Assembly: GCA_003427395.1 (NCBI GenBank)
Contig: BFEA01000008.1
Span: 181,204-245,203 of the forward strand
DNA from: Chara braunii
Taxonomy: Eukaryota; Plantae; Charophyceae
Reading direction: 5' to 3'
Length of the DNA: 64,000 nt
Part shown: positions 19,630-56,997 of the stretch, in pieces
How the letters are laid out: each line of letters opens with the position of its first letter
Numbering within the stretch: position 1 is the stretch's first letter
Notes under the pieces: model-generated
The model's input: the letters and a program-made list of their open reading frames with translations, nothing else
Databases searched by the model: none
What the model was told of the DNA's origin: nothing
Position numbers and translations under genes: made by a program

Positions 19630-19702
<73 letters not shown>

Positions 19703-22632: not shown

Positions 22633-25420
22633 TGTGACGCGCTAACCTCACGCCCTGTGCTGTCTTTCATTCGGAGTGTTAGGCGCGCCGAAAGAGGCCC
22701 AGAAAAACAGCAAAATGGGGTGTGCCAAGGATTTTTGAAAATTGAGTGTGGGGATACAGATGGAACTGAAATCGATTGCTTTCGCGCGTCGCGGAATGCG
22801 CGCGCGGGCACGGCGTGACAAGAGACAAATCCAAATTCAATTCAAAAAGTATTTTTGGACTTCCCACCGAGCCACAGCCCGTCGTTTAGAACAGAAAGGC
22901 TTTGGCACGCTCCGCGTGTCTCATTTTCGTATCAAATCTCGTCGTCATTCGATGGTCAATTCTGAGTCCGACGTGGATGGTCTCAGTCGCGTGGTTCTTT
23001 CTTTATGCTCGTCTTCACTCCGCACACGGTAGTGGAAACCCCTAGATTCGTAGCGTTCAAAACGCTGGCATTCGGTGCATAGAGTGCGTGGCCAGTGGGG
23101 TTCTACTGCCGTCCACGGGATGACGATCAACTCGTTGAATGGCAACAATATCGAGTAAGGTGGGAAGTGCGTGTCGATAATGACAAACCCAGCCTCTACG
23201 AACCCTGAACGACGATTTGCTGGAGGGAAGTAATATCATCCGTCGATCTGTGCGACAGCTTCTCGCACGTCCCACTCGCATATACGTGTCCTTTCCTCGT
23301 TGTAAGGAAAAGGTCGTGTTGGGGCGGGAGATACAGGAGGTTGGTGCCCAATCGGAGGGTACTGGTTGGTCCACATATCAATCAATTGGAAAGACCTTGC
23401 GACGTCATCAAGAAAAGAAAACACTTGCGCAACTCATAGACAATTCCCTTCAACCCGAGAGGGAGAGAGAGAAAGAGAAAGAAGACACGTCAGCAGCTTG
23501 ATCATGCATATAACTAAGGGACCGATCCGCGGCTCAGGTTTAATGAGCCAGCGCGCCGTTGATCCCCGAGCGCCTTGTTTCTCGAGGCCGCCTCGTGGTT
23601 GGGCTGCGGATGTCGGACAGCATAAGGCAGATGGCATGCGCAGTGCACTCAAAGCTACAGATCTAAACACTCTTGCATTCTCGGACAAAATCCCGACGAC
23701 AATCGTCTAATCAATGTCAAAGAGACGCGCATTCCCATACATCCATTCACTGTGGAAGATGCGAAAATGAGCCATGCACAGAAAAAGATGGATTGCTTGC
23801 ACAGTACACACGCATCCACCGTTCACAAGACAAGAAAACGGGGTCCTTGCGCGGGAGGATTACCCAGGAAACTAATGGAAGAGTTTCGGAAGAAGTTCTT
23901 TCACGCAAGGAAAGCATACAGATTCATGCTCATCCAGAAGAGGGAAAAAAAAAGAGAGAGAAAGAGAGAGAGAAGCATCGAGACACATTATCATTCAAAG
24001 ATAGAGGAGAAAGGGGAAGGTGAGGGGGGGGGGGGAAGAGAGTCTAGATAGGAGATGACGCAACCCAAAAGAAGGAAGTTCAGAGAGAAAGATCCGCAAC
24101 AACAAAGGCGCATTCGCCGTTAATTCCAATATGGCCCCGGGCCAATAACTCACTCAACTTCAATCATCGATCCTCATACCCGCACCGACGATCCCGATCG
24201 TCGCGTGCTAACTCCCACCACTGCGATCGTCACCCCGCTTTCGTAGACTCGACACAGTTCGCCCAGATCCCACAGTCCGTCGTGGCGATCCAGCGCGCAA
24301 CCGGCCAGCCTATCGTCAGCCCGACAGGACTTTCCGATTAGCANNNNNNNNNNNNNNNNNNNNNNNNNNNNNNNNNNNNNNNNNNNNNNNNNNNNNNNNN
24401 NNNNNNNNNNNNNNNNNNNNNNNNNNNNNNNNNNNNNNNNNNNNNNNNNNNNNNNNNNNNNNNNNNNNNNNNNNNNNNNNNNNNNNNNNNNNNNNNNNNN
24501 NNNNNNNNNNNNNNNNNNNNNNNNNNNNNNNNNNNNNNNNNNNNNNNNNNNNNNNNNNNNNNNNNNNNNNNNNNNNNNNNNNNNNNNNNNNNNNNNNNNN
24601 NNNNNNNNNNNNNNNNNNNNNNNNNNNNNNNNNNNNNNNNNNNNNNNNNNNNNNNNNNNNNNNNNNNNNNNNNNNNNNNNNNNNNNNNNNNNNNNNNNGA
24701 TTGGCGAGCGGGAGTTATCGATGGATTGACCGGGCGTCGTGTGCCAGCCTCAGAGGGTGAGGGAAAAAAAAGGCGCGAGAAGTGGCGCAAGACGGGTCCA
24801 AGATTCAGATGATCAAGAAAGGAAAAGGGGCGCGCAAAGAGCAAGGCGGGAGAGAGAGAGAGAGAAAGAAAACAGTTACAGGGCGAGAGAAAGGGGAGGG
24901 AGAAAGGGAAAGGAGCGTGGGAGGGAGCGATGCGGGGGACAGAGAGGAGACAGCTTTGCACGCGCGGCGCCGTCAACAGAAAAAGAGAAAAAGGCACCGA
25001 AACAGTTACAGCCTAATTCAAAACTGAAATCAACATATCCGCGCGCGAAAGAGCGACGCGGGAAAAGAAAATCCTACGCCTATTCGTATTCGCACAAAAT
25101 TCCGAGAGTTTTCCCCGATGCGACCAAGAACATTCACACACACGAAAAGGACACGTCGATGTTCCGCTTATCCCGGAATTCCCAACTGCCGAGCCCAATT
25201 CCCAGTGCGTTCGCTAAGGTGTACGTAATTTCCTATGTATTTCCCGAATTGCAGAAAGGAAAAGTCGAACCCGGGATTCGAAAAAAACTTCCGAAAGATG
25301 GGGGCCAAAAACGCGGTACCCAAAATCAAGAAAACGAAACGGCGTTTTTATGGGGTTGGTATGATACAAGCACAAAAGGGGTACGAAAGATAGCACGGGT
25401 TCGGGAAGTGGTTCGTCACA
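22633..25420 (-). repeat. E2 3' LTR (~2.8 kb, contains N-gap)
   Basis: Highly similar to 33969-36716, plus 11 extra terminal nt (22633-22643). Confidence 0.95.
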
Positions 25421-25432
25421 TATGTGACGCGC
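25414..25432. other. Palindromic att-junction-like site CGTCACATATGTGACG plus internal copy of the terminal 10-mer, at the position of the PPT
   Basis: Perfect 16-bp palindrome at 25414-25429. 25423-25432 (TGTGACGCGC) is identical to 22633-22642. Confidence 0.9.
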
Positions 25433-25779: not shown

Positions 25780-26409
25780 CTACCTCCTAGTTGGAATGGG
25801 CCAATAGAGGCGGTACATGGAGGGGATTTCTCGGGGCCGACGGGGAGGAAGTGGGGGTAGGAAGCGATTCATTCCTTCTATCGTCACCAGAAGCTCCTCA
25901 TATCCGATGATCCGGTGGAAGTGGGGGAAGTGATCGCCGCTGCGAGGGAGGGAAGCAAGGTAGTCGCGATAGAAAGAGGAGAGGGTGCGGAAAAGCGCCG
26001 TTTGGAAGAACTCATAGTGGCGGCAGGCGGGGATTGTCCCCGTGGCAACGCAGTAAACCTCTACCACGTTGCATCGCTCCCATGCAGCGCTGAACAGCAA
26101 GAGATGCCAGCAGAACGTGGGGGCAGCGGATTGAAGGGAGGCGTGGGGGTGGACGGTGGCGAGTAGGCGGGTAGAATAGAAGTCGCGGAAGAGATGAAGA
26201 AGGAAGGGATGGGAAGGGAAGGTGACGGGAGTACGGATCTGCTCGAGGGTGAGGAAATCAAGGGGTTGGCGGGACAGCGTCCAAGGACGAAGGCCTATCG
26301 CCCGCATCGGTACGTGGGCGAACTGGGGGACGGGTTGGGCTGGAGGAGGAGGGGGATCGACTCCGTCTCCGTCGAGCGGTACTTGAGGTGGCGGCTGCAA
26401 GGTCGCCAT
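25780..26409 (-). CDS. E2 accessory ORF 3 (~209 aa from MATLQPPP), unknown function
   Basis: Open frame in the sense of the element between integrase and the 3' LTR, with a globular-looking aromatic-rich core. Confidence 0.5.
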   Translation of the reverse strand: MATLQPPPQVPLDGDGVDPPPPPAQPVPQFAHVPMRAIGLRPWTLSRQPLDFLTLEQIRTPVTFPSHPFLLHLFRDFYSTRLLATVHPHASLQSAAPTFCWHLLLFSAAWERCNVVEVYCVATGTIPACRHYEFFQTALFRTLSSFYRDYLASLPRSGDHFPHFHRIIGYEELLVTIEGMNRFLPPLPPRRPREIPSMYRLYWPIPTRR

Positions 26410-27286
26410 CTTCGGGCTTCGGTAGCTCTGGATCCCTAGTCGGATCGTTACCGATGAGCAGGCTAGCTTTGCTGGCGAACTCCAGCTGGCGCTTCCCGGT
26501 GGCAATTTCTTCGCGCTTTCGCGCCGCTTCCGGATCTTCCGCCTCCGTTTCCGTACGCGTTGCCTCCTCCGGCACGGCTTCCCACTCAGATCCTGTTTCT
26601 TCTTCCTCCTCTTCTCCTTCACTCAGCTCGCCCTCGCTATGTTCACTATAGCTCCCCTCCTCCAATGTTTCCTCGTCTTCATCCTCTTCGTCGTCGTCGT
26701 CGATCACCACTTCCTCTTCCCTCAGATAGAAGGCGTGAGGGATGATATCGTACAGCTTCAGATACTCCTGCCGCGATGGTAGCGTATCCTCGTCCCTAGG
26801 TTCCTCCAAGCACGCAGTCCACTGAAGATACGGATCCAATGATCGCTCGAAAATGTATGGAGCAGGACTGTCGTCACTATGAAAATAGATGTCGGGCGAG
26901 AGATCGTCCGCCAATTGCACGATTGGTGTGATGAGCTCTTGCGCAATCAGCTGGCGGCGCCCCGGCTGTACCGATCCAAAGAGAAAGCCAAGAAGATTGC
27001 CCTCCGCGTTAGTCCTCCAAGCTTGGATGATTAGCAGTTCCGGATTTTCGATCCACGCAGGATGGCCGCTGGTCTGTGTCCACGTCACCTGTATTCTGGC
27101 CAAGCAAAAAAACAGCTCCTCAAAAGTTTCGCGCCACAGCCGCCAATGTCCAGGATTGATAAGAGGGACCGAAAGAGGCTCGAATGAGAAGGAAAGAGAA
27201 GGATGAAGATCGGATTGCCAGAAGGTGGGGAAGAGAGAGGGGAGACCAAAGATAGAGAGAGGAGCGAGAAGATCGACGTGGTTCAT
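26258..27286 (-). CDS. E2 accessory ORF 2 (342 aa; globular N-half, acidic tract, RS-rich tail), unknown function
   Basis: Long intact ORF in sense orientation downstream of integrase. Confidence 0.6.
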   Translation of the reverse strand: MNHVDLLAPLSIFGLPSLFPTFWQSDLHPSLSFSFEPLSVPLINPGHWRLWRETFEELFFCLARIQVTWTQTSGHPAWIENPELLIIQAWRTNAEGNLLGFLFGSVQPGRRQLIAQELITPIVQLADDLSPDIYFHSDDSPAPYIFERSLDPYLQWTACLEEPRDEDTLPSRQEYLKLYDIIPHAFYLREEEVVIDDDDEEDEDEETLEEGSYSEHSEGELSEGEEEEEETGSEWEAVPEEATRTETEAEDPEAARKREEIATGKRQLEFASKASLLIGNDPTRDPELPKPEDGDLAAATSSTARRRRSRSPSSSSPTRPPVRPRTDAGDRPSSLDAVPPTP

Positions 27287-27411: not shown

Positions 27412-27750
27412 CTACCACATGTTGAACACTTGCTCCGTCCACTCGCGCAGCGAGGTCAAGATCGTGGTATGCCACTGCGGATTGACCGAGCTGATGTCAC
27501 CGCTGAACGCCGCAACCGTGGTAACGTGGCTCGTTCTGGGGCCCGCTCGCCGATGAACTGCGGTTACCTCCGCGAATACCACTGCGTGAGGACTTCCTTC
27601 GATTCGAAACGCAGCGGCGGCACAGATACCTTCGTCGCAGAAGAATCGCATTAATCGGCGACGATCTGCATTGAGTCGAGGGTGACAAACTTGCCGAATC
27701 TCTGAGATGTGGCCATGTGGCTGCAACAGCTGTGCGTCAAGAAGAGGCAC
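27412..27750 (-). CDS. E2 possible accessory ORF 1 (112 aa)
   Basis: Sense ORF after the integrase C-terminus; start uncertain. Confidence 0.35.
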   Translation of the reverse strand: MPLLDAQLLQPHGHISEIRQVCHPRLNADRRRLMRFFCDEGICAAAAFRIEGSPHAVVFAEVTAVHRRAGPRTSHVTTVAAFSGDISSVNPQWHTTILTSLREWTEQVFNMW

Positions 27751-27949
27751 TAGCCTCAGGAGCGATGCGCACCGTGATAAAACTCATGGCGAGGTGGGAG
27801 AGGAGGACGAAGGACAAGAGGGAGAAAGAGGAGAGAGAGTTAGATCGTCGTCGTTCTCTTCGCTTTCCGAGGAAGAAGAGGGAGGAAGATCAGGAGGAGG
27901 AAGAAGACGGAGGTAGGAGGTATGTCGGACAATGGGGACAGAGTTATGG

Positions 27950-29574
27950 CTGGCACTAGCCTCAGGCGCGATGCGCACCGTGTTGGCGCCGTTGAGTCCG
28001 AGCTCGACAACGTGAAAACAGCCAGAAAACTTGGGAGCGAGTTTCCGGTCGCGTGCACATTTACGTACCTGCACTAGGTCCCCTAATTTATATTGATGCT
28101 GGGGCCCAGCATTTCCATTCCGATCCTCGTAGCTACGGACCTATCTACCGTGGGCCAGTTCGGTCATCCTTTGCCTTTTTCGGGCTAGCTTCGGGACGAC
28201 CCGTTCCATTAATTCAGTGTACCTTTTGGCCTTGGCTTTGAAAGTTGTACGCGTGTCTCTACCCCCTGCTTCGGCAATTTCCGAGTTACCTCGGTAGTCG
28301 ACACAGGGGAGGCTATTAGTTCGAAGTTGAAAAGGGGTAAACCCCGTGGACTCGTGAGGGGTGGCCCGGTGGATCCCAACAATTTGATATACGATCTCAG
28401 GCCAAGGACGTGCGTCATGTGCCGGTAAGTTCCTGCGAAGGGCGGTTTTGATCATACGGTTGGCATTTTCGGCCAACCCGTTTGACTAGGACACGTGGGG
28501 TGTCGTATGTCGGAGCGTGATGCCCCTTCGCGCAAGCAGTTCTTCTACCTCACCTTTGAATTCGGACCGATTGGCGGTCACAATTTCTTCCGTATCTAGA
28601 TGGGTATAGAGGAACCGTTCGATGTACGTGGCTATTTCTGCGGCTTTTTGGGTCTTACAGGGATAGACTTCGATGTACTTGGAAAAATGATCTATTAATA
28701 CTAGCAGGATAGAATATTCACAGCGGTTTGGGCCAGGTGGCACGTCGATATCTGTCGCGTCCATACTAACTCGCTGGAAAGGACGCTCTACTTCCGTTGG
28801 TACGATCGTGTTTGGTCCCCGTATAGGGGCGCGATCAGCGGCACAGACCAGACAGTTAGCGACAATGTATTTGACATCATCTCGTATATTGGACCAGAAC
28901 CATCGGTTCTGATCTACAGTTGCCTCCGCGACACGTATTGCGAAATGAGCGGCCTGTTCCTCGTGAGCAAATCGAATCCAATCATATCTCTGGAATGGAT
29001 GGGGAATCGTCAACCACGAGCCCGAACCGTCAGTTTTACGTTTTTCCAAATGGCCGTTGACCCATCGATAGTCCCGAGATCTCTCCGTCGCCCTACGTCT
29101 GTCGTGTTTGGTAAGGTGACCCAATGATAATCCCCCTAATTTTGCCAATAAAATTTTATCCGTCCAAACCTCCGCTCGTCGGTATTTTTCGTCGTATTCA
29201 GGGTCGTCCGTACGGGCGGTCTCGAATCGAACCTCCGTGGGGAGTTTGTTCGTTCTACACAGGGGGCACCTCCACTCCTTGTTATTCGTCCGATATCGAA
29301 CGCAGGCCCCGTGCGCACGATTGACACACGTGGCACATTCTACCCAGTCAACAAACCTGGTTTCGAAAGGACGGCAGTCGACCCCATGGACCCGTGCGAT
29401 GCACGTGCAAAAATAACAGAATTTGTCGGGGAGGGTGGCAAAGAAAGCTGAGGACGTGAGAGGGGCAGCATTAGTAGGAGATGAAGGGGTAGCGGAGGCA
29501 AGTGGGGTAATCATGATGACAGAGAAGGAAGGGATGCAGAGAGGGTAGAATAGACCAATGAGTCCTCGTGTCAC
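27950..29574 (-). pseudogene. PHD finger-integrase (HHCC, DDE core, GPY/F-like tail), broken by a stop at 28486 and further lesions
   Basis: PHD CYFCTC..WVECATCVNRAHGAC..WRCPLC. HHCC H-EEQAA-H..CLVC. Core PFQRVSMD, IDHFSKY, TANRSEF (second Asp lost), NGLAENANR, TPHESTGFTPFQL. Tail KLAPKFSGCFHV. Confidence 0.9.
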
Positions 29575-32282
29575 TCACTGCTTCGATAAGATCTCCACTT
29601 GGCCGTACCAAGGTCCGATCTCTTGTTCGGGTTCGTTCCACGGAATCACCTCCTCACTCTTCGGAACCTTCTCAGGCCGGTGCAGTCGTGTCAGTCCGTC
29701 CGCATTCCCGTGTCTCTCGTGCTTTCGATGACGGATGTCAAAGTCCATGCTCTGCAGCACCGTTGCCCATTGCCCGATCATGCGAGAGTTATCCTTCGAT
29801 TTCTTCAGAGCCAACAAGGGCTCATGGTCAGTTACCAAGGTGAACTTTCGCCCGTACAGGTAAGCGCGGAAGTAGCTGATACCCCAGAGAGCCGCGTCGC
29901 ATTCCCCCGTCGGAGCGTCGTAGTTGCGCTTGCAAGCTGGCACCGATTTGGAGGCGTACTCCACCACACTCTCGAGTCCGCTTGGTCCCACCTGGGCAAG
30001 GATCGCCGAAATTGCCTCTGGCTGCCAGTCAGTGATGAGAACAAAAGGCTTTTCGGGATCCGGTCTTATAAGGACCGGGGCCGAAATGAGAGCGGTCTTG
30101 AGTTTGGAAAACGCTTAATCGCACTCCGGCGTCCAGATCAACGGCTGATCTTTGCGCAGCAGATTCGTGAGGGGTCCCGCAATCGCCACGAAGCCCTTGA
30201 TAAATCTTCGGTAGTACAAGGCCAGGCCCAGAAAGGCGCGAACTTGCATGATAGTTGTAGGCACCGGCGCGTCCCTGACAGCTGCCACCTTCTGTGACTC
30301 CGGCTGGAGTCCCTTGTCTGTCACCACGTGCCCTAGGAAGGAAATGGTGGTGAGGAAAAATTGACACTTCTCAAGCGCCACCTTGAAGCCCGCATCTCGT
30401 AACGCGTGCAGTGCCCATTCGATGTGTTGCACGTGTCCCTCGTAGGAACTTGAATACACCAAGATATCATCCATGTACACAATCACGCAGTAGTTGATAA
30501 TGCTCTGTGCCAACCGAGTCTTTCTCACGAAATTCTGAAAAGCCATGTTTATGGCTCGCTGAAAGGTCGCGGGGGCGTTGTAGATACCCATCGGACATCG
30601 AATCCACTGCCATGTGCCCTCGAAAAGTACAAACGCTGTTTTCAGACGATCTTCTTCTCGAACAAGAAGATGATGGAACCCATGGCGAACATCAAATTTG
30701 TTGAAAAATCGAGCACTCCCAATCGCATCCAACAACTCATCAATCCGGGGGAGGGGGTACACATCTTTGATCATGATATCATTCAACTTTCGATAATCAA
30801 TGCAAATGCGAATCCCTCCAGTCTTTTTAGGCACGATTACTACGGGAAAAGATTAGGGACCTATGGCGGGTTCGATCCATCCATTAACTTCGAACTCCTT
30901 AATCCGCTGAAAAGCGGCCGGTCTTTGAGCTGGCGAGTATCGGTAAGGAACGCAGCTAATGGGTGGATGGTCTCCCGTGAGAATGGCATGCTCGATCACA
31001 TTAGTTAAGCCAATGTCATTATCATGTATGCTCAATACTTCCGCGTACCCGTTTAACACGTAGATTAATGATTTTCGAAGTTCTGCGGGGACGTGACCTG
31101 GCAGGGTGATTGTTGATTCCTCGAAAATCTCAAGGGGCACATCGACCCAATCATCCGGCCGTTCCTACCGATCATGGACACTAGAGAAAACGGAACTACT
31201 GGTGCGAACAGAGAAAACTGTAGCTATCATCTGGGACTCTGCGGGGCTGATCACCTTTGTTTCTTTGGCTTCAGCATCAGTCTCTGAATCAACCGAGGTC
31301 GGTTCCACAGTTAGCCCCGCTAGATCCGTCATTTCCTGCATCAGATCAGGTACGTCACTTACTGGTGCTTCCGCCTCTTGTTTAATCAAAATGATGGTGG
31401 CTCCTGGCGTTAGTAACGTTCTGGGCGGGAAAACAGAAACATCCAAATATTGTTCCATTTGCTGATAACGCGTACGTAAGGACAGAGCTCCTTCGTACAA
31501 GGTGCGAGGGGGTTCCGAATCATCTGTCAGGTCAGATACTTGTAATATAGGTTCCCCAAGCAGGGCCGAAGGATTAACTTGCGTTATCGGAGGCGCAAAC
31601 ACGCTGTCTCCTGAATCCACGTGGAAACTTTGAACAGGGTCGGGGCACACTTGGAATTCCTCGGGAATTTCGTGTTCGAAAAGTTCAACCAGGTGCTTCC
31701 ATTCATCTTCGCTAGGCAGCTCTTCTTCGTATTCCTGTTCCCGGATTCCATCACTGATGTGCGAGGGAGAGCGCTCCTCGGAATCAATGCATTGAATCAT
31801 CCCAATTTGGGCCAAGTTAGGGACCCGTTGAATCGTTCGGGTGGAAACTCGCAAGGGAACAGTTTGAGGCTTTCCCCCAGTTTGCGTGAGCACCGATTGT
31901 TTCGAATCGAAATGCAGGCGTGCGCCCACCGCCATCGCCCAAGGTAATCCGAACAACAAAGAATAAGAACGTACATCTATTACGAGCACGTTAACAAGAA
32001 CGTGTACTCGTCCGACTTTTACAGCCACGTTCTCGATAATGCCTACGATGTGCATTGCTTCCTCGTCGGCAGAGACATAATTGTCTTTGCCAGATTGAGG
32101 AAGAATGGATCCAAGTCGTCCCGTCTTTTTTACTGTATCCAATGATATGGCCACGACAGAAGATCATGTGTCAATAAGGGCATTAAACAGCTTGCCCCAA
32201 ACTTCACAGTCACATTCCGCACTTTTTCACAATACCGGTCGAGCTCGTACGAAGTGATTTTTTTCTGCTAAAGAGATCGCTG
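29575..32282 (-). pseudogene. E2 pol: protease, RT, RNase H with several premature stops
   Basis: Protease ALIDT*SS (DTG mutated to a stop). RT CIDYRKLN, NAPATFQ, YMDD. RNase H FTLVTDHEPL..HGNADGLTR. Confidence 0.93.
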
Positions 32283-33833
32283 CTATACGTGCCGCTTCGG
32301 GTTTAGGTTCTCTCGTGTCCGGCTCGGGGGGTGCAACTCCTCGCTTCCTTCCTTCTTTTTCAACATCCGTTGTATGCGCTGATAGGTAAAGCGCTTTTGA
32401 TTTTTCTGGCAATGTTGTAAAAGTTTACCGTTCGCGGCTTCAGATATGGTGAGCAGATGTCCTCCTGGGATAGGAATGCGAATATCTAGTTGCTTGAGCG
32501 ATTTCAATACATCAATATCTCCTGTCCGAAATTGCAGTCCAGGATTGGATTCGCGATCGACCCATTCGAGATCATTTGGGGCCGATCGGATCGCTCCGAT
32601 CATGCCTGCAAGATGAAGATACTTGAGGGGATCGACCACATCAGCAGCGTCAGAGGAAGAAGCTCCAGAGGTCGACGCTGTTGCCATCGAAGGGGAAGGC
32701 TGCTTTGGGGCATATGCCACGAGTTCTCCTCCTTGATCCGTATCCATCAGGGCGGCCACTCGTCCTTGATTAAGGGCGACAGGGGCCGCAGCAGGGGGAG
32801 GCTGATTACATTTCGACTGCGGACAGTCCCGGGCGAAATGCCTGGGCTGTTTGCAGTTAAAGCACTCGATCTTTCCTGCTGGATTAGCTAGATGAGGGAA
32901 CTGAGGTGCGAACCCTGGAGCAGGCGGGGCAGGTAAGAGTGGAAATGATGCGGGGCCAGGCCGAGCAGGAGCCGGGTTAGGCTTAATTATCCTGCTCATT
33001 ATTTGTTCCATTCGTTCCATATGAGCGGCTTGCATTTGGATCAAGTTGCTCATCCGATCGGACTGCTTAGTAGTGGCCGTATGGATCATTTGGGCAAGGT
33101 GTGAGTTGGTTATGGCCGGCGAGGAGGGTTCGGGTGAGATTCCGCTTTTAACGACTGCGATCGATTGATTCGCCGGAGGAGAGGAAGAAGACGCAGGCGG
33201 GGTATCGGAAACGATCCCACCGGGGAGGTCATGGTCGGGGCGGGGATAAAACCGTTCGACCGCCTGCAGCCATGATCGCCTTTTAGCCGTTACATCCCGT
33301 ATAGTATCTGTGATGTCTTCGTCTCCCTGGCTGATATACTTTTTTGTATCAATCAGGTCCAGTTCCAATGCTTTAGTGATGATAGCCCATAACTGGTGAG
33401 TTTTCAGCGGAACCTTTTTCTGCAGTTTGCCTTTCAATGTAGGACTTCGTAGATGGTCGATGAACAAATCTCGAGCGGATTTCTCGTCTCGCCCGGATTT
33501 GTCCAGCGTGGTTTGAAATCGATCGACCAAATCGGGTAACCATTCCCCTGGTCCTTGTGGCCGATTTTTGAGTACGTACCAGACGGCATCTTCACTAACC
33601 GTATCAAATTGAGCCAAGAAAGCTTGCTTGAAAGTATCCCAGTCTACCCACGTATGTTTTCTAAACCAGTCATGCGACGTATTGCGGAGTAGCAATGTCA
33701 AAACGCGGGGAAAATCGATTGCGCTGTAGTTTTGAGCTTCGACAACTTCTAGCCAAGCCTCGGGGTGGGTATGGTTAGGGAAGAAGGGGAAGGGTGCGGG
33801 GATACTAACGATCACCCTAGTACCATCCACCAT
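32283..33833 (-). CDS. E2 Gag (capsid-like region plus CCHC zinc knuckle)
   Basis: 516-aa ORF starting ~120 nt after the PBS; WDTFKQAFLAQF and CFNCKQPRHFARDC. Confidence 0.92.
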   Translation of the reverse strand: MVDGTRVIVSIPAPFPFFPNHTHPEAWLEVVEAQNYSAIDFPRVLTLLLRNTSHDWFRKHTWVDWDTFKQAFLAQFDTVSEDAVWYVLKNRPQGPGEWLPDLVDRFQTTLDKSGRDEKSARDLFIDHLRSPTLKGKLQKKVPLKTHQLWAIITKALELDLIDTKKYISQGDEDITDTIRDVTAKRRSWLQAVERFYPRPDHDLPGGIVSDTPPASSSSPPANQSIAVVKSGISPEPSSPAITNSHLAQMIHTATTKQSDRMSNLIQMQAAHMERMEQIMSRIIKPNPAPARPGPASFPLLPAPPAPGFAPQFPHLANPAGKIECFNCKQPRHFARDCPQSKCNQPPPAAAPVALNQGRVAALMDTDQGGELVAYAPKQPSPSMATASTSGASSSDAADVVDPLKYLHLAGMIGAIRSAPNDLEWVDRESNPGLQFRTGDIDVLKSLKQLDIRIPIPGGHLLTISEAANGKLLQHCQKNQKRFTYQRIQRMLKKKEGSEELHPPSRTRENLNPKRHV

Positions 33834-33956: not shown

Positions 33957-33969
33957 GGCTCCGATACCA
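33957..33969 (-). promoter_or_regulatory. E2 PBS (initiator tRNA-Met), overlapping 14-bp palindrome CCGACACGTGTCGG at 33945-33958
   Basis: TGGTATCGGAGCC immediately after GTGAGGT. Confidence 0.9.
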
Positions 33970-36716
33970 ACCTCACGCCCTGTGCTGTCTTTCGTTCGGA
34001 GTGTTAGGCGTCCGGAAAGAGGCCCATAAAAACAGCAAAATGGGGTGTGCCAAGGATTTTTGGAAATTGAGTGTGGGGACACAGATGAAACTGAAATCCC
34101 CCGTGTTGGTCCAATGAAGCAAGTCGATTGCTTTCGCGCGTCGCGGAATGCGAGCGCGGGCACGGAGCGACAAGAGACAAATCCAAATTCAATCCAAAAA
34201 GTATTGTTGGACTTCCCACCGAGCCACAACTCGTCGTTTAGAACAGAAAGGCTTTGGCACGCTTCGCGTGTCTCGTTTTCGTATCAAATCTCGTCGTCGT
34301 TCGATGGTCAGTTTCGAGTCCGACGTGGATGGTCTCAGCCGCGTGACTCTTTCTTTATGCTCGTCTTCACTCCGCACACGGTAGTGGAAACCCCTGGATT
34401 CGTAGCGTTCAAAACGCTGGCATTCGGTGCATAGAGTGAGTGGCCAGTGGGGTTCTACTGCCGTCCACGGGATGACGATCAACTCGTTGAATGGCAACAA
34501 TATCGAGTAAGGTGGGAAGTGTGTGTCGAGAATGATAAACCCAGCCTCTACGAACCCTGAACAACGATTTGCCAGAGGGAAGTGGTATCGTCCGCCGATC
34601 TGTGCGACAACTTCTCGCACATCCCACTTGCATATACGTGTCCTTTCCTCGTTGTACGGAAAAGGCCGTGTTGGGGCGGGAGATACGGGAGGCTGGTGCC
34701 CAATCGAAGGGTACTGGTTGGTCCACATATCAATCAATTGGAAAGACCTTGCGACGTCATCAAGAAAAGAAAACACTCGCGCAACTCATAGACAAGTCCC
34801 TTCAACCCGAGAGGGAGAGAGAGAGAGAGAAAGAAGACATGTCAGCAGCTTGATCATGCATATAACTAAGGGACCGATCCGCGGCTCAGGTTTAATGAGC
34901 CAGCGCGCCGTTGATCCCCGGGCGCCTTGTTTCTCGAGGCCGCCTCGTGGTTGGGCTGCGGATGTCGGACAACATAAGGCAGATGGCATGCGCAGTGCAC
35001 TCAAAGCTACAAATCTAAACACTCTTGCATTCTCGAACAAAATCCCACAATCATCTAATCAATGTCAAAGAGACGCGCATTCCCATACATCCATTCGTTG
35101 TGGAAGATGCGAAAATGAGCCATGCACTGAAAAAGATGGATTGATTGCACAGTACACACGCATCCACCGTTCACAAGACAAGAAGACGGGGTCCTTGCGC
35201 GGGAGGATTACCCAGGAAACTAATGGAAGAGTTCCGAAAGAAGTTCTTTCACGCAAGGAAAGCATACAGATTCATGCTCGTCCAGAAGAGGGAAAAAAAA
35301 GAGAGAGAGAGAAAGAGAGAGAGAAGAATCGAGACACATTATCATTCAAAGATAGAGGAGAAAGGGGAAGGTGAAGGGGGGGGGGGAAGAGAGTCTAGAT
35401 AGGAGATGCCGCAACCCAAAAGAAGGAAGTTCAGAGAGAAAGATCCACAAAAACAAAGGCGCATTCGCCGTTAATTCTAATATGGCCCCGGGCCAATAAC
35501 TCACTCAACTCCAATCATCGATCCTCATACCCGCACCGACGATCCCGGCCGCCGCGTGCTTACTCCCTTCACTGCGATCGTCACACCGCTTTCGTAGAAT
35601 CGACACAGTTCGCCCAGATCCCACAGTCCGTCGTGGCGATCCAGCGCGCAACCGGCCAGCCTATCGTCAGCCCGACAGGACTTTCCGATTAGCANNNNNN
35701 NNNNNNNNNNNNNNNNNNNNNNNNNNNNNNNNNNNNNNNNNNNNNNNNNNNNNNNNNNNNNNNNNNNNNNNNNNNNNNNNNNNNNNNNNNNNNNNNNNNN
35801 NNNNNNNNNNNNNNNNNNNNNNNNNNNNNNNNNNNNNNNNNNNNNNNNNNNNNNNNNNNNNNNNNNNNNNNNNNNNNNNNNNNNNNNNNNNNNNNNNNNN
35901 NNNNNNNNNNNNNNNNNNNNNNNNNNNNNNNNNNNNNNNNNNNNNNNNNNNNNNNNNNNNNNNNNNNNNNNNNNNNNNNNNNNNNNNNNNNNNNGATTGG
36001 CGAGCGGGAGTTATCGATGGATTGACCGGGCGTCGTGTGCCAGCCTCAGAGGGTGAGGGAAAAAAAAGGCGCGAGAAGTGGCGCAAGACAGGTCCAAGAT
36101 TCAGATGATCAAGAAAGGAAAAGGGGCGCGCAGAGAGCAAGGCGGGAGAGAGAGAGAGAGAAAGAAAACAGTTACAGGGCGAGAGAAAGGGGAGAGAGAA
36201 GGGGAAAGGAGCGTGGGAGGGAGCGATGCGGGGGACAGAGAGGAGACAGCTTTGCACGCGCGGTGCCGTCAACAGAAAGAGAGAAAAAGGCACCGAAACA
36301 GTTACAGCCTAATTCAAAATTGAAATCACCATATCCGCGCGCGAAAGAGCGACGCGGGAAAAGAAAATCCTATGCCTATTCGTATTCGCACAAAATTCCG
36401 AGAGTTTTCCCTGACGCGACCAAGAACATTCACACACACGAAAAGGACACGTCGATGTTCCGCTTACCCCGGAATTCCCAACTGCCGAGGCCAATTCCCA
36501 GTGCGTTCGCTAAGGCGGACGTAATTTCCTATGTATTTCCCGAATTGCAGAAAGGAAAAGCAGAACCCGGGATTCGAAAAAAGCTTCCGAAAGATGGGGG
36601 CCAAAAACGCGGTACCCAAAATCAAGAAAACGAAACAGGGTTTTTATGGGGTTGGTATGATACAAGCACAAAAGGGGAACGAAAGATAGCATGGGTTCGG
36701 GAAGTGGTTCGTCACA
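33970..36716 (-). repeat. E2 5' LTR (lacks terminal CA; contains N-gap)
   Basis: Matches 22645-25420 and joins the PBS directly. Confidence 0.95.
34189..34728 (-). CDS. LTR-encoded ~179-aa protein with CxxC motif (MWT..PPYSILLPFNELIVIPW..CTEC..LRPSTSDS)
   Basis: Homologous frames in other LTR copies (ORFs 16068, 18477, 22945/23236, 56169, 58479, 59816), with synonymous divergence. Confidence 0.72.
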   Translation of the reverse strand: MWTNQYPSIGHQPPVSPAPTRPFPYNEERTRICKWDVREVVAQIGGRYHFPLANRCSGFVEAGFIILDTHFPPYSILLPFNELIVIPWTAVEPHWPLTLCTECQRFERYESRGFHYRVRSEDEHKERVTRLRPSTSDSKLTIERRRDLIRKRDTRSVPKPFCSKRRVVARWEVQQYFLD

Positions 36717-41600: not shown

Positions 41601-44600
41601 ATGAACCCTCCCGAGCCGTCGCAGTATCAGCTTGCTCGTGCATCCCAGCACCTGGCTGCTGGTGGCGTAATCCCGCTGGGCCAGTCTTCTTCCCGGGCGT
41701 CAAATTTCGCCCTGTATCATGGCTCCCCTGCCCTGCCCAGTTTGGGACATGAGGCAACGTATCGATCGCCCGCAGGTGCACAAGGAGCGTTGCCTTCTCC
41801 TCCTCCTCCTCCTCCTCCTCCTGCTGCTGCTGCTACTTCGTCATCGTCTTCTCTTTCTCCTTCGTCTCCTCCTCCCTCTTCTCACATTGCTTCTTCTTCT
41901 TCTTCATCTTCCTGTTCTTCTTTCTCCTCCTCTTCCTCTGTCTCCTCTCCCGTTGCCCCGCACCTTGCGAGCTTATCGCAGGCGATCTCCCCTGTGGAGG
42001 GAGGTGGCTACTACTCTCCCTTCGGAGGACTTACTATGCCGTCCGTCGGGAGCTCTGCTTCCTCGTTCCTTACTTCGTCACCACCCATTTCAATTTCTCA
42101 CCTTCCCCCCTCCCACCACCCGGGGGTAATCGGCGAACACTTGGCACGAAATGCAGGAGTCGCTGCCGAAAATCCATCAGCTGCACAAGAGATTGGTAGA
42201 GCGGGGTTGCTGGATATACTGCGCCGTGGAGATTCTGGAGTGAGGCAGTTGTTAACGACAGAGGAAGGGCAAGATTTTGCTAACGTCGCAGCAGAAGGAG
42301 CTGGAGGAGGAGTAATCGGAGGTGGGGGCGTGACGGAAAAGGATGCTCTAGCACGTCTGGCGATGGCCAAGACGGGTGACAAGGTGGGAGGTTTCTGGGG
42401 CCAAGCGAGCGACGTGGCGATCTCCCCGCCGGTTCCGCCGGTCCCGTCATTGCCGCTCCGAGTGGGCGGGTGTGGTGGTGCGGTGGCCGAGAGAAGGGAG
42501 GTGATTGCTGTGCCCGCGACAGCTGCTTGTGTTGCGGAGAGTCATCTGCAACAGCAAAAGCAATGGCATCAGCTTCGTCCGTTGGTAGGAACCACTGCAG
42601 GTGGGGCAGAGGTCTGGGGAGAAGAGGAGAAAGGGGGAACAAGTATGAGAAGCGGGGCCGCAGCGATGGCTGTGCTACAGCTACAGCACGCGGAGGGGTC
42701 TATTTACTCTCCGCGTCTGGCCTCGGCGCTTTGGACGACGACGACTCTCGGGGCTTCTTTGCCAACTCCCGCTCTCCCTCTGCATCCTCCTCCCTCTCCG
42801 CATCAGACGGCGGCTGCTGCCATTTCACCGGCATCGAAATCGGTCTTCAGCTCCAGCCAGTTCTCGGTCCCCAACCTTCGCGCGACCACGTCTTCAGAGG
42901 GCGGAGGAGGTGGCGGAGGAGGAGGAGGAGGGTTGAATGGGAGATCTGTCCAGCAAGCGGGCCAGGGGCAGCAGTCGAACTCCGAGAGACAGGGAAGAAG
43001 AGCCGGAGGAGCGACGAGAGGTCTAGGGGTCGGTGTTGTAAGAGGAGGAGGGTACCTGGAGTTGGGCAGGTATCACCCGCAGATGCAGTTCGTGAATGGT
43101 ATCTCGACGTCGTCGCCGGCGGCGTCGGATACGCGCGAGACGTTTCAGGGGCAACAAGGTGGGGGAGCAGGATGCGGAAGAACGCAGCAGAGACTATCGC
43201 CGAGCATGACAGCAATGATAGGAAGTACACTGCAAGCTGATCTGCAGTCGCTGCAGCAGCAAGAACAGCAGCAACAACAGGAGCTAAGGGCGCTGCTGCT
43301 ACATAGACAAGAACAGGAGAGGCTAGAGAGAGAAAGAGAGAGGGATTCCGACAGGAGGAAGCTCGCACAGACACGAGTAGTCGAAGGATTTCCATACGGC
43401 TGCAGTTCGCCAGCAGCGGCGGCGGCGGCGGCGGCGGCGGCAGCGGCGCTGGGTTTCGCAGATGTCAAGGGCTCAGCGACGATGCCATCGAAGATGGCGC
43501 AGAATCTGGCGGCCACGGCGAGTACAGCCACCCCGGGAGGAGGGCCTCACAATCCACAAGCTCAGTTCTATGGCAACGGTGTAGAGCTTCTACGGCTTTT
43601 GCAGGGGGGAAGTCCTGCGCTACTGACCTCGTCACCATCTCCGCCTCCTGCTCTTCCGACGCCATCTTCTCGTCCTCTTACCCCTGCACCGCCGTCGACG
43701 GCGAGTGGTTCCCCGTCTCATGCTGTTCGTGGCGGCGGTCTGCAGCAAACGGCGGGAGCAGAGGGAGGGGGGGGGGAGGTGGTTGCAGGGATGATTCAAG
43801 CTCTGGGAGGTGGAGATGCAGCGCCGGGATCTCCATTGCGGCCAGGTTCGGGGAGGGAGTCGTCCGCTCTGACGACGGCGGCCGGAGGGAGTGCAGGACA
43901 GTCGTTGCTTCAAGTAGGAGGGAGGGTTAGCCCCGGTCTCAGCCATAGCCACAGGGTCGGGATAGCTCACGGACCTATCGGACCTCCCCGTCGCTCGGAG
44001 GGGGGGTTTAGCAAAGATGGGTTGGGATCCGGCGGTCGAACAGATGGAGGAGTTGGAGATGCCTTGTCGCTGGGGGAAGGCTCTTCGGCCGCGTCGGACG
44101 ATTTTCTGGGCAGACTGTGGACATCGCCGCTCACACCGAATCCTTCACCGAAATCGGCGGCGGGTTCGTCGCCCGTCAGCCCGTCGACTGGTCGTTCCAG
44201 CGGGAGCAGCGTGGGGTCAACCAGTCCAACGACGCCGGGCACGCGCGGGAGAACTCCCTCCCCCTCCCCTTTGCTAGTTGAAGGTCTCCGGTCCAGCTGG
44301 GGAAGTACCGGCGCGGCAAACGGGGTTACTGCTGGAGGAGGTGGGCTGATTGCTCCGATGGGTGCAGCACTCGGAAGCGGGTTCTGTGTCGGGATGGGGG
44401 GTGGGCTTGTGACCAGCGCAGGTGTAGGAGGGCCGGGATATGGAATGACTCTTGTTTCCTCCGCACTCGGTCCGGGAGGAGGGCCAGCAGCAGCAGCAGC
44501 AGCAGGAGGGGGAGGAGGAGGAGGAGGTGGGAACACTGTTGGAGCCGGGCGTGGAGATGCTCTCGGGGCTATCGGGTTGAGAGGGGGGATAGGCGGGACA

Positions 44601-47600
44601 CTGCCTTCCTCCGCGGCAATGACCAGCCTGATTGGGCAGGGCATGGGGAGCGGGTCAATGGGCCTAGGAGGCGGTAGTGGTCCCAGCGCCCCGACAGCTT
44701 TGGGGGGGGTCGGGGTCGGGGCCGGAGTAGCTGGAGATCTCACGACCGGGGTAGGGCCACCTCTAGGACCGGGCGCATTTGGGTTGGGTGTTGGCATCAC
44801 ACCCGGGTTCTTGCAGGGGTTGGGAGTTGGAGTAGGCGCTGCCAGTTTCATTCCGGCGTCCCTAGGTGTAGGAGCGGCGGGAGCAGCGGCCGCAACAGCA
44901 GGGGTAGCAGGAGTATCAGGAGTAGCAGCAGGAGGAGGCGGCGGCGTTCGCCTAGCTGCAGCATCTCCTTCCCCTCTGCTCTACGCCGGCAACGACCAAC
45001 ATCTTCAGCAGCAGATCCAGGAAGGGGGGATGTTCGCGGGAGAGGCTTTCTTGACTGACCTTGGACTGATCGGTCGACCCGAAGGAGGAGTTGGCGGGGC
45101 ACTGACTGTGGAAGGGGGGGCGCCGACAGGGGGTACGGGTCTGGCAGCCGGAATCGTAAACCGTCTTCGGATGTGTGATCCTGTGGGGACCACAGCCGAC
45201 CCGAGGTTGGCAGCAAAAGAGTTGGAAATCATAGAGAGGGGCCGCATAATCAGTGCGCTGGACGAACGGCTGGCGGCGTTGAATCGCCGACTTGCACTCC
45301 AGTCCCTCTCTCAGGCCGGTCCTCCTTCACAATGCCATCCGCTTGTTCCGTCGTCTTTGGGGAACCAGCAGCAGCTGATGTACCGTCATCACCATGCCCA
45401 GCAGCAGCAGATGTATCTTGGGCATCACCAAGATCAGCACGAGCATCAGCAGGCTATCTTACAACAGATTCTGCAAACGCAGGCACGAGAGCAAAGCACG
45501 CAGGCATTACTGATCCAACAAGCGAGTGCACTGACGGGACGAATGTATGTGAGGGGAGGAGGTGTGAGATGTGGGGAAGGAATGGGGCTGGTTGTCGGTG
45601 GTGTGAGTAGCCACGACGTTAAAGGAGCTGGAGGAGGAGGAGCGGGAAGAGCAGGTGGTGGACTTGGAGGAGGAGGAGGAGTAGGAGGTTCTCATTTAGT
45701 ACGGGACAACAGCAACAGTGGGACGGACAATCTATCTGGAGGCGGGAGCTATGGCGTCGTCGTTGGGGACGCATCCGGGCGGGCCGCCTCGCAAGCCGGA
45801 AGGGAGGTCTCGTCGCGGGGTGGGAGTAATCGACGGGTAGGTGCCCGAGGAGGAGGAGGAGGAGGAGGAGGAGGAGGAGGAGGAGGAGGAGGAGGAGAAT
45901 GGGGAAGAAGAGGTGGAGGAAGATCTGGCAGATTTGGAGGGGATAGCCTCAACCAGTGGGTGCCGGTCGGAGAGAAGTTTCGCGAGAGTGGAGCGAAGGA
46001 AGGGGAGGAGGGACTGACCGCTGCTGTGAGCGAGATGGGGGGGTCTCTTGATAAGGAGGGGGATGCGTGTGGCGGCCTGGAGGAAGGAGGAGGAGACAGA
46101 GGAGGCGGTGGGAACGGGGTCGGCAGGGCTCAAGAGGCAGCACCTGCGCTCAACTTCGCGCGAGTTGATGGGCGGAAGAGGAGGGGAGGAATGCAGGAAT
46201 GGAGATTGAAGCAACCGCAGCCGCAAGTCACCCAGCAGGTGCAACAGCAGCAGCAGTGCCAGAGTACAGGTCAGGTTCAGGTTCAAGCGTCTTCTTCGTC
46301 GGGGTCGATAGCTCAACAGCATCAGGATTTGCAGCTCTCGATGGGTGCTTCTGAGTTTTCTCCCCTTACTGACGCAGAGATCGAGGAACACCGTCAGGCC
46401 AGTGCTACTGACGAGTATTATTCTGATGATAGGGCGAAGGGCGTCTGGGAAAGGGTAGAGGGAAGAGAGGGGAACTCACTGACTGAAGGGAGGATGATGT
46501 TATCAGCTGCCGTATCGGTGGCGGCGGCCGCCGACAGTCATGATGCGACTGTTATTAAGCGTGACCGTCAACCACAATCCCTGTCCGTTGTGAAAAGGCC
46601 GGCTCGACAGGAAGAGAGAAAAGCATGGCAAGAAGTGGGGGAAGAGGAAGAAGACGAAGGACTGAGCACAACCACCGACTTTGGAGAGCGACTGCCGTCG
46701 CCCCGTGATGAAGGAGGTGATCACGTGAGTCACATCGGCAATGACAACAATGACAATGAGAGTAATGACGATGGCTCTCTGGAGGAGTACGGCCAGGAGA
46801 AGGTCACGAACTCGACGAGGGAAGAACGAGCTCAGAAAAGGGAGAGCGGAGTGAGGATCTCCCCCTCCCCTGCCGCCATATCACCGTCTTCGCCTCCGTC
46901 GCCAGCGCCTATCATAACGAGTCGCAGGACGAAGGAACTGGACGTCAGCCAAAATGTCGAGGAGGCTATTGTGATCCCGGAGGGAGGTAGACTTGTCAGA
47001 AGCGTGAGATTCGCCGGCCTAGACGACTCATGGAAGAGAGAGAATTACCGCCTTACGGTGTCTCGTCAACTTCTAGAGCAGCAGGTGCCGAAGATTGACT
47101 CCTCACCTGTCGATCAGTGGAAAGACTCCGATCCAAGACATGCAAGTAACTGGCTGAGCGCTATCAGAGTGAGCCCGTCTTGGACGAAGAGAGGGGAGGA
47201 ACAAGAGGAGGGCAAGAGGAATCCCTTCGCCTCCTACTCTTCCTCCTCTTCCTCCTTCTCCTCCTCCTCCTCCTCGTCTTGCGACACCAGCGAGGGAATC
47301 AGAGATGCAGATCGGAACTCGATGGTGGTGGCGGCGATGGACCGGGGCCAAAACGGCCTCGACGATGGTGATAAGCTGGAGGGTAAGGATGCAAACGCCA
47401 TGAGATTTGCTATTAGTCTACCGACGCATGCTCGGTTTTTGACGATGAGGAACAACAATTGGGGAGCAGGGGGAAACAGCAGCAGCAGCAGCGGCGGCAA
47501 GATCCTAGCAGATGAGCGAAAGGAGGAGGCGGGAGAGAGATCAGAAGAGGCAAGAGACAAGGGCGCTTATCGTCAGGTAGGAGGGGTGGATGGTGTTCTC

Positions 47601-48737
47601 GTGGAAGAAAGGAGACTGGTGGAGACATCCCTGGATCAACACGCCGTTCCTCCATCAATAAGGGAAGTGCAATATGTGCCGGAGTGTCGTGTGGAGTGCA
47701 GAGAGTTGTGTCCTCCTTCCAACTACAACGACCTATTGCGGAGAGGGGGGTGGTTTTTTGTCCCACCATTTCCTGCAACAACTACGGTAACCGGTGTTAA
47801 CGACCTCTCCGGCAAATGCTTCTTCTTCGAGGAGCGAGAGCATGTGGAAAAGGCCTACAATTCCCGCCTCTCCGGCAAATGCGGCCTCGTAGAGGACCGA
47901 GAGCAGGTGGAAAAAAAGGACTACAATACCACCCAGCGGGGGCGGCGGTCGTACCGGTCTTTGCTTTCCACTGACAGCCGGGCGCGTGAGAACCAGATGA
48001 GAGACTTTCTCCATCGCTTGGTCTCGATTGCTAACCGCAGCTGGCCGGGAGTTGTACTATGGCTGCATGGATCTTCGTCACAACGTGCGGCGTCGAGCAC
48101 GTGTCGTAGCGATCTGAACGTGCGTGTATGGGTCGGGATCGGTGGAGGAGGAGGCGGGAGAAAGGTCAGGCCGGATCTGTGTGCCCGACGTCAAAGCGAA
48201 GTGAGAGATTTCCTCATCGGGATGGAAGGAGGAGGAGAGTTTGAGAGAGGGGGAGGAGGAGGAGGAGGACGACGACGACGAAGAAAAGGAAAAGGAGGGA
48301 ACACTCGAACGACGGTGCTGCAGCTGGCTATGGCCGCAACACTGCGACGGAGCAGGATGCGCTTCGTGCAGACTCTGAGGCATGCACGAGGGGCAGTCGT
48401 CAAATTTACAGATCGGTTCAGCCCGATCTCTTGCGAAATGTATATCCGTAACACAATGCCGATGGCCAAGACTTCCAAGTTTGTGCACGATGACGAGAAG
48501 AGGGGCTACCGGCTGATTGACAAACGGATCGCCTCTCTCGAGATAGATTTGGGCAGAGTGCCCTGGCATCCACGAGTCTTATCCAGTGAGCCTCACCAGA
48601 AACAAGTAGGTGACCACACCCTCAGCTTGGGCCTCCACTCCACCTCTTCCTCTTTTTCCCCTTATATTCCTCTTATTCCTCCCTCTCTTAATCTTCCTCC
48701 ATCTGTTCTATGCCTGACCCCTCCCCCCGACCCCGCC

Positions 48738-48781
<44 letters not shown>

Positions 48782-49043
48782 AGTCTACCCACTTGGCTTG
48801 CATCCTTGTCCCTCGTCGGTTTCTATTTCAGCTCTCTTCCCCCCCCCCTCCTCCTCGCCGTCTTCTGTCTTCTCCTCTTCCCCCTGCAGGCCGACCACTT
48901 TGTTTGTTGCTTTCTCTTCGTCTCCCTTTCTCCGTTTCCACTCAGTTTTTTCTCAGCCGCTCTGTTTCTTTGAACGTCCCTCCACTCGGCACGAAAGCTT
49001 TTCTCTGTTTGGTGTCTCTTTCTTCCGCGTCCAATCGTTATAA
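41601..49043 (+). CDS. Giant low-complexity protein with a degenerate C-terminal URT1/Cid1-like nucleotidyltransferase domain; true 3' end probably spliced
   Basis: 7.4-kb uninterrupted ORF. SWPGVVLWLHGS..SDLNV..VQTLRHARGAVVKFTDRFSPISCEMYIRN resembles URT1-type WP.[42 protein letters not shown]. After ~48606 (GTAGGT) the sequence is pyrimidine/poly-C rich and intron-like. Confidence 0.65.
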
Positions 49044-56900: not shown

Positions 56901-56942
56901 ACCATAACGCTCCGCCTGGAAGGTAGCGCAGGGCGTGAGGTT
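53910..56942 (+). repeat. LTR A (E1 family) with an internal 240-bp duplication (~54125-54600) and a MITE
   Basis: Starts TGTGACGCACCAACTTTCGGACC, ends GCGTGAGGTT without CA; colinear with 56998-59271. Confidence 0.9.
54901..55408. mobile_element. 508-bp MITE with 8-bp TSD (hAT/P-like)
   Basis: TSD GATCCAAA (54893-54900 / 55409-55416), imperfect TIR CTATG(A/T)ATC(C/A)CCCGC, empty site in LTR B (~57720). Confidence 0.88.
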
Positions 56943-56985
56943 CATCATTTGAAGGTCGTGAGCTCGAACCTCACATGCCCCACCA
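56943..56985 (+). tRNA. Captured 3' half (positions 34-76) of a mature elongator-type tRNA-Met(CAT) including CCA; not a tRNA gene
   Basis: CAT-CA-TTTGA-AGGTC-GTGAG-CTCGAAC-CTCAC-ATGCCCC-A-CCA: 43 nt in exact canonical register (anticodon, variable loop, T arm, acceptor strand, discriminator, CCA). Confidence 0.85.
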
Positions 56986-56997
56986 GAGCCTCACATA

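Follow-up and report, generated by a model that had tools for sequence, protein, structure and literature searches.

Organization of Element E2 and Location of the LTR ORF

The analyzed window, that is, the whole stretch of 64,000 nucleotides of Chara braunii DNA, contains the LTR retrotransposon E2, which lies on the minus strand. Its 5′ LTR occupies positions 33969–36716, with an N gap at 35695–35994, and stops at the primer-binding site (PBS) without a terminal CA; the PBS (33957–33969) begins with TGGTATC, which we take to be of the initiator tRNA-Met type. It is followed by gag with a CCHC knuckle (32283–33833) and by a pol frame (27415–32163) encoding protease, RT, an RNase H region, a PHD finger, integrase, and a short downstream ORF, the RNase H region being identified from the translation and not from a Pfam match. 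Next come two overlapping extra ORFs of 342 aa, with a long acidic tract, and 209 aa (25780–27286), which had no Pfam match at threshold, and the 3′ LTR (22633–25420) with an 11-nt terminal tail. All of these features are on the minus strand, and a 4-bp target-site duplication (TSD) flanks positions 22633 and 36716. The pol frame contains 7 stops in 1582 codons; consequently, E2 is dead.

The best PDB matches of the E2 RT were Ty3 RT chains (E-value about 1e-50), whereas other RTs were matched at 6.5e-31 or weaker, and the gene order (gag, protease, RT, RNase H, integrase), together with the direct repeats, PBS, and TSD, is that of Ty3/Gypsy elements. The two LTRs do not both run from TG to CA, and no polypurine tract adjoining the 3′ LTR was seen; E2 as a whole ends in TG...CA. 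E2 is a clear member of the Ty3/Gypsy group with atypical ends. A PHD-finger-like cysteine domain was found between RNase H and integrase (29574–29230, minus strand; Pfam E-value = 0.003, under the cut-off), and three ORFs of 123, 342, and 209 aa, none assigned to a Pfam family, lie between integrase and the 3′ LTR (27783–25780, minus strand). Elsewhere in the window, a 2480-codon low-complexity ORF (41601–49043, plus strand), which toward its end weakly matches the nucleotidyltransferase palm (PF22600, E-value = 5e-4), probably represents the long first exon of a host gene.

The LTR ORF (P0001, 179 codons) is located at 34189–34728 on the minus strand and, being read from 34728 to 34189, is sense to the gag-pol of E2; the plus strand at the same positions contains stops. 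It begins at nucleotide 1989 of the 2748-nt LTR and ends 220 nt before the PBS and 355 nt before the gag ATG, gag being in a different frame. An earlier sequence-only reading had placed a sense ORF of about 179 aa in the PBS-proximal part of the LTR, and its coordinates proved correct, on the minus strand of the window. It should be noted that an ATG-initiated ORF of at least 179 codons arose by chance in 3.2% of 500 resampled copies of a 1.7-kb stretch and that a 280-codon antisense ORF overlaps the LTR ORF; the length of the ORF alone is therefore weak proof, and the codon pattern constitutes the evidence.

Copies of the LTR ORF in the Window

Homologous frames were detected by tblastn in all seven LTRs of the window, namely, in both LTRs of E2, the 5′ LTR of E1, the tandem pair A and B, and the solo LTRs S1 and S2, with an identity of 39–90% for the six copies other than that of the E2 5′ LTR, which is the sole unbroken one. 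The presence of the frame in every LTR had been proposed earlier; the broken state of six of the seven copies had not been mentioned. The copy in the E2 3′ LTR (22837–23376, minus strand) has 90% amino acid identity and 3 stops, and that in the E1 5′ LTR (16068–16601, minus strand) has 2 stops. The copy in LTR A (53910–56942) lies at 56187–56714 on the plus strand with 2 frameshifts, and that in LTR B (56998–59271) at 58499–59030 on the plus strand with 3 frameshifts and a stop. Two divergent copies are present in the solo LTRs, both of which are flanked by 4-bp TSDs: one in S1 (17831–21757) at 18264–18782 on the minus strand with 3 stops, and one, frameshifted, in S2 (59621–62194) at 59816–60281 on the minus strand, the ends of both being approximate. 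No TSD was found for the A/B pair.

The MWT start is common to both E2 copies, E1, A, and B, and the stop position to E2, E1, A, B, and a copy outside the window, L001. The shared start, the motifs of the divergent subfamily (CFEC and CTEC), and the six differences within the codons for LRPSTSDS, all of them synonymous, were read exactly as the sequence-only reading had reported them. A segment of some 30 nt is found twice in the E1 copy (16090–16200), where it replaces part of the ORF in frame. The E1 element itself is rearranged: its 5′ LTR is interrupted by solo LTR S1, some 11.5 kb of intervening sequence separates the parts of its gag (15100–3622), and its protease, RT, and RNase H run to the left edge of the window. 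Within LTR A (54125–55408), part of the sequence is duplicated, and about 500 nt of AT-rich sequence have been inserted.

Selection Acting on the LTR ORF

Eight DNA copies were compared in all (the seven LTRs of the window and L001), the codon comparisons being made on a nucleotide-only alignment and not on a protein-guided one. According to the codon model, omega was 0.252 for five copies (lnL = −1748.3 vs. −1799.3 at omega = 1; 2ΔlnL = 102) and 0.260 for seven copies (lnL = −2900.1 vs. −2971.4; 2ΔlnL = 143), and omega = 1 was rejected in both cases. The earlier proposal had been staked on dN/dS between subfamilies differing from 1, and with an omega of 0.25–0.26 on the tree it passed this test. 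In the other five reading frames, omega ranged from 1.2 to 2.4, except for the mirrored antisense frame (0.38–0.42). Pairwise comparison of E2 with E1, A, and B gave a pN of about 0.19 and a pS of 0.70–0.75 (Fisher p < 1e-23), and that of E1 with A and B gave an omega of 0.18–0.20, whereas in comparisons with S1 and S2, which are near saturation, pN/pS was 0.6–0.7. The mismatches between E2 and E1 at the three codon positions numbered 38/36/102 in the LTR ORF and 36/28/102 at the start of gag.

Neutral simulations that allowed for transition and CpG bias, with 150 runs at each setting, yielded a third-position share of at most 0.41 and a silent-codon share of at most 0.28, whereas the observed values were 0.56–0.58 and 0.48–0.55, respectively. 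The silent share in comparisons with S1 and S2 (0.19–0.23) was not above that of the simulations, which were run at lower divergence; the coding case therefore rests on the E-type lineages and on the codon model. Codon periodicity is confined to the LTR ORF and continues into its last third, whereas the other conserved LTR blocks lack periodicity and contain numerous gaps whose length is not divisible by three. In the outside copy L001, 33 of the 72 changed codons were silent. Thus, the LTR ORF is, almost beyond doubt, a protein-coding gene under purifying selection between subfamilies, about as strong as that acting on gag.

Omega between A and B was 0.96. The two E2 LTRs gave an apparent signal of selection (omega = 0.36, p = 0.011), which was rejected because the silent share of 0.41 is within the range of the neutral runs (mean 0.27–0.29, sd 0.08). 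The close copies thus decay neutrally, so selection acted on active, replicating elements and not on the present insertions. A frame of this length remains free of stops in 30–59% of cases at 2–5% random change, and one intact copy in seven consequently requires no host co-option. The sequence-only reading had envisaged a selected accessory factor persisting in solo LTRs; selection and the presence of the frame in both solo LTRs bear this out, but the solo copies are broken and decaying, and the accessory role is a matter of interpretation, considered below.

The Encoded Protein and Its Relatives

The product P0001 has a pI of 9.5, with 22 Arg and Lys residues within positions 104–179 and no hydrophobic segment of transmembrane strength. 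Conserved among the homologs are C33-x-W, FP, G(F/V), PP(Y/F), LP(F/Y), PW, (H/Y)WP, and CxxC at 100–103. Three cysteines (C33, C100, and C103) are kept in the distant homologs and possibly form a putative zinc site; among the aligned homologs, there is no invariant fourth metal ligand.

The relative P0005 (175 aa) shares 49% identity with P0001 across 89% of the query and has the same end point, and P0006 matched the core at an E-value of 2.4e-17. L001, in which the ORF is interrupted by a stop at codon 174, likewise has it inside an LTR. The named homologs are two C. braunii gene models with 78–81% identity. A profile search of 1.84 billion representatives returned four matches, one of them an artefact: P0007 (E-value = 8.8e-9) was rejected as a homolog, since its score was a sum over 13 methyltransferase repeats. 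No match in Pfam was found for P0001 or P0005, and one of nine alignment members had a weak match (E-value = 0.18); PHROGs gave nothing beyond one match at an E-value of 0.44, and of the three PDB sequence searches, two gave no match and one gave a single match (E-value = 5.2). The ESM Atlas matches of P0001 were all under 0.9, and those of P0005 had a TM of at most 0.35. The AlphaFold models were unusable (pLDDT 38.8 for the full length and 38.2 for the core), and Foldseek with the predicted core of pLDDT 38.2 gave no match at an E-value of 0.001. No relative was found in viral contigs; metagenome contigs gave no match with P0001 and one with the alignment. There was no similarity to the other E2 products. 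Judged by these sequence comparisons, the protein represents a new small family with no match to a known one.

In the C. braunii gene models P0003 and P0004, the ORF is fused to other exons, in one case to a DCP1 domain; these fusions are probably prediction chimeras and possibly cases of LTR exon capture. The match L002 was obtained in the gag scan (E-value = 8e-4).

Predicted Promoter and RNA Data

A TATA-like box was found in LTR A at 55514–55521 (plus strand), with counterparts at 19945 (S1), 61506 (S2), 17277 (E1), and 57826 (B). At the homologous site, it is exact in three of the six readable copies (A, S1, and S2) and differs at one or two positions in E1, B, and L001; in both E2 LTRs, the site falls inside the N gap. 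The box lies about 670 nt upstream of the ORF ATG in E1, A, and B, with 18–24 ATGs in between. Since this conserved box stands upstream, the LTR ORF is predicted to lie in R/U5: transcription would probably start about 30 nt past the box, and the ORF would form part of the leader ahead of the PBS and gag. The 18–24 upstream ATGs mean that translation would require a spliced leader, shunting, or re-initiation. Donor-like GTGAGT sites occur soon after the predicted start in S1, S2, and E1.

In three raw oligo-dT RNA runs, no transcription start or poly(A) cluster, no splice joint into the LTR ORF, and no joint between the ORF and gag were found. Run X3 gave low coverage along the entire element, predominantly from the sense strand, assuming the customary library orientation; over the ORF, its reads came from both strands (about 58:42), with no enrichment above the LTR copy number, and the depth on the ORF in the other two runs was 0.07 and 0.13. 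Most reads were 95% identical or less, so they stem from other copies. Expression of the family as RNA is plausible. One contig with two reads joined position 35152, in the LTR upstream of the ORF, to 28281, after integrase, a junction that leaves out the LTR ORF, gag, and the larger part of pol. The ends of this joint do not form clean splice sites, and it may represent a candidate subgenomic RNA or a deleted copy.

Just past the predicted start, a conserved non-coding block without codon periodicity (35452–35694, minus strand) is present in all LTR subfamilies. The deepest RNA contigs are in this block, and two of them start near 35460; the block is possibly R, although the contigs do not define RNA ends.

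Proposed Function and Alternative Explanations

The product of the LTR ORF may be a basic, cysteine-bearing protein with an accessory role, namely, binding the RNA of its own element in the nucleus and assisting in its processing or export. We put this forward tentatively, at a little under an even chance; since no family, fold, or partner was found, the RNA-handling function rests on composition and analogy. The gene is duplicated with the LTR and left behind in solo LTRs, the inserted copies then decaying. According to this proposal, the ORF would lie in the R/U5 leader of the genomic RNA and be reached via splicing, shunting, or re-initiation. The product would have a three-cysteine core (C33, C100, and C103) as a putative zinc site and an arginine-rich tail predicted to bind nucleic acid, and it would stand alone and act on element RNA in the nucleus, like Rev or CERV of Cer1.

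The main rival assigns to the same gene a protein acting on DNA or chromatin, either as a transactivator of the LTR promoter or as an anti-silencing factor, for which foamy-virus Tas and the VANC proteins of VANDAL elements are precedents. A small, basic, cysteine-bearing protein would suit such a role, the E2 pol also has a PHD finger (below the Pfam cut-off), and a plant extra-ORF protein has been reported to be nuclear (PMC7264820); however, no DNA-binding family or fold was found, and sequence alone cannot tell DNA binding from RNA binding. We consider this role possible, though on the unlikely side.

Another reading, compatible with either function, places the LTR ORF in U3, with expression from the 3′ LTR through a subgenomic RNA, in the manner of sag and nef. 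The RNA data contain no mapped start site, and the many upstream ATGs hamper translation from a 5′ leader, both of which would suit this placement, but the TATA-like box upstream of the ORF is conserved in both subfamily groups, and the RNA joint from 35152, itself upstream of the ORF, fits an upstream start, although its ends are not clean splice sites. The U3 placement is improbable.

Less probable still is that the ORF is an upstream exon or a structural partner of Gag, such as a spliced-on matrix-like part. It stands 355 nt before the gag ATG, gag begins close to its capsid-like region, and two Chara gene models connect the ORF to other exons. Against this, the stop is common to E2, E1, A, B, and L001, selection continues to the end of the ORF, P0005 ends at the same point, gag is in a different frame, and the RNA data contain no ORF-to-gag joint.

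Capture of a host-gene or nested-element fragment, with a codon pattern older than the capture and selection since lost, would account for the broken state of L001 and of six of the seven window copies and for the omega of 0.96 between A and B, but it is largely refuted and very improbable, because the synonymous excess built up between LTR subfamilies, after any capture, at a gag-like rate, and because no host homolog was found among the 1.84 billion representatives except for the repeat artefact. Finally, non-coding conservation or an antisense-frame shadow mistaken for a gene is refuted, since the omega of 0.38–0.42 in the mirrored antisense frame, which might suggest it, is the expected shadow and exceeds the sense value, the antisense frames have more stops overall, the neutral simulations do not yield the observed pattern, and distant homologs retain the motifs.

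Comparison with Known Systems

Coding sequence inside or overlapping an LTR is also found in MMTV (sag) and lentiviruses (nef). The sag and nef genes lie in U3 and are read from the 3′ LTR, whereas the LTR ORF lies in the predicted R/U5. The comparison with them drawn in the sequence-only reading therefore holds for coding sequence in an LTR and is imperfect as to its position, the LTR ORF being downstream of the predicted promoter. The hosts also differ, that of E2 being an alga, no env was identified in the element, and no Pfam or PDB sequence match linked the LTR ORF to sag or nef. LTR-borne genes are already known in retroviruses, where they lie in U3; here the gene sits in the predicted R/U5 of an algal Gypsy LTR.

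For accessory RNA-export proteins, retroviral Rev/Rex offer a further comparison. Another is CERV of the C. elegans element Cer1, whose cysteines are reported to be needed for the export of unspliced genomic RNA (PMC10309623). CERV resembles the LTR ORF product, a putative accessory protein of a Gypsy element, in its conserved cysteines and basic residues, RNA export being only predicted for the latter. It differs in being 517 aa long with exons shared with gag, and no homology between the two was shown.

The extra ORFs of plant Ty3/Gypsy elements (Ogre, Athila, and Retand/Grande), as presented in PMC7264820, PMC6317226, and PMC6431247, likewise constitute a conserved, family-wide extra gene with no database homolog in elements with long LTRs. 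As with these genes, the LTR ORF is conserved in most copies and under gag-pol-like selection. The plant ORFs are in the internal region (PMC7264820), whereas the E2 ORF is inside the LTR and, being located there, is duplicated and kept in solo LTRs; according to PMC6431247, the extra ORFs of Ogre are also internal, and its long LTRs are non-coding. Extra ORFs were scored from 250 codons in the REXdb survey (PMC6317226), and the LTR ORF, with 179 codons, is below this cut-off. No mention of "charophyt" or "PHD" was found in the main text of this survey. A literature search on LTR-borne or extra ORFs, PHD-bearing Gypsy elements, and Chara elements, the coverage of which did not extend to the Chara genome paper and Repbase, gave no description of the gene, and a search for an LTR containing an ORF matched only an MMTV review.

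In the annotation of plant and algal elements, LTRs are treated as non-coding. Because of this and of the 250-codon cut-off (PMC6317226), genes such as the LTR ORF are invisible to surveys of extra ORFs. We regard the LTR ORF as a genuine gene under selection that belongs to a new small family and has an unusual location, its function being inferred; it provides a new candidate accessory protein from a close lineage of the land plants. If the gene does lie in U5, it would be copied at strong-stop, the first step of reverse transcription, and would spread with every solo LTR. The gene also explains the presence of the domain in some Chara gene models.

Asymmetric LTR Ends

The LTR ends are asymmetric (window positions 22633–22643, 25409–25428, 33969, 15840, 17831, 59262–59271, and 59621; L001 positions 2540–2556). 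In both E1 and E2, the 5′ LTR lacks a terminal CA and passes into the PBS, whereas the E2 3′ LTR, S1, S2, B, and L001 carry a 10–11-nt terminal tail closing in GTCACA, which forms a palindrome with the LTR start. In E2 and the A/B pair, the position before the next LTR, at which a polypurine tract would be expected, is occupied by a stretch nearly identical to the tail, followed by TA. As the TSD of E2 demonstrates, the tail is part of the element; RNA reads and contigs also continue beyond 33968 into the same tail. Such a layout would be expected if a two-LTR circle were cut at the palindrome.

The split direct repeats of PAT/TOC1 elements have a similar layout (A ... b A b), with a short repeat before the 3′ LTR and at the element end. 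Unlike them, E2 has a b of about 10 nt, a DDE integrase, a PBS, and a 4-bp TSD, and it has no tyrosine recombinase. More speculatively, and with considerable doubt, a charophyte Gypsy lineage may be envisaged that carries a new regulatory protein family wholly in U5, each solo LTR being a potential trans-acting source, and whose right end is built from a short split repeat, an arrangement that would agree with integration via a circular junction and not via standard linear cDNA.

The spacer between LTRs A and B (56943–56997) resembles, in the sense orientation, the 3′ half of a mature tRNA-Met, including the anticodon, paired T-arm, and CCA end, and a tail-like repeat follows directly after it. 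ARAGORN and Rfam gave no call for this tRNA-like spacer; as a single example, it may record a tRNA-primed plus strand.
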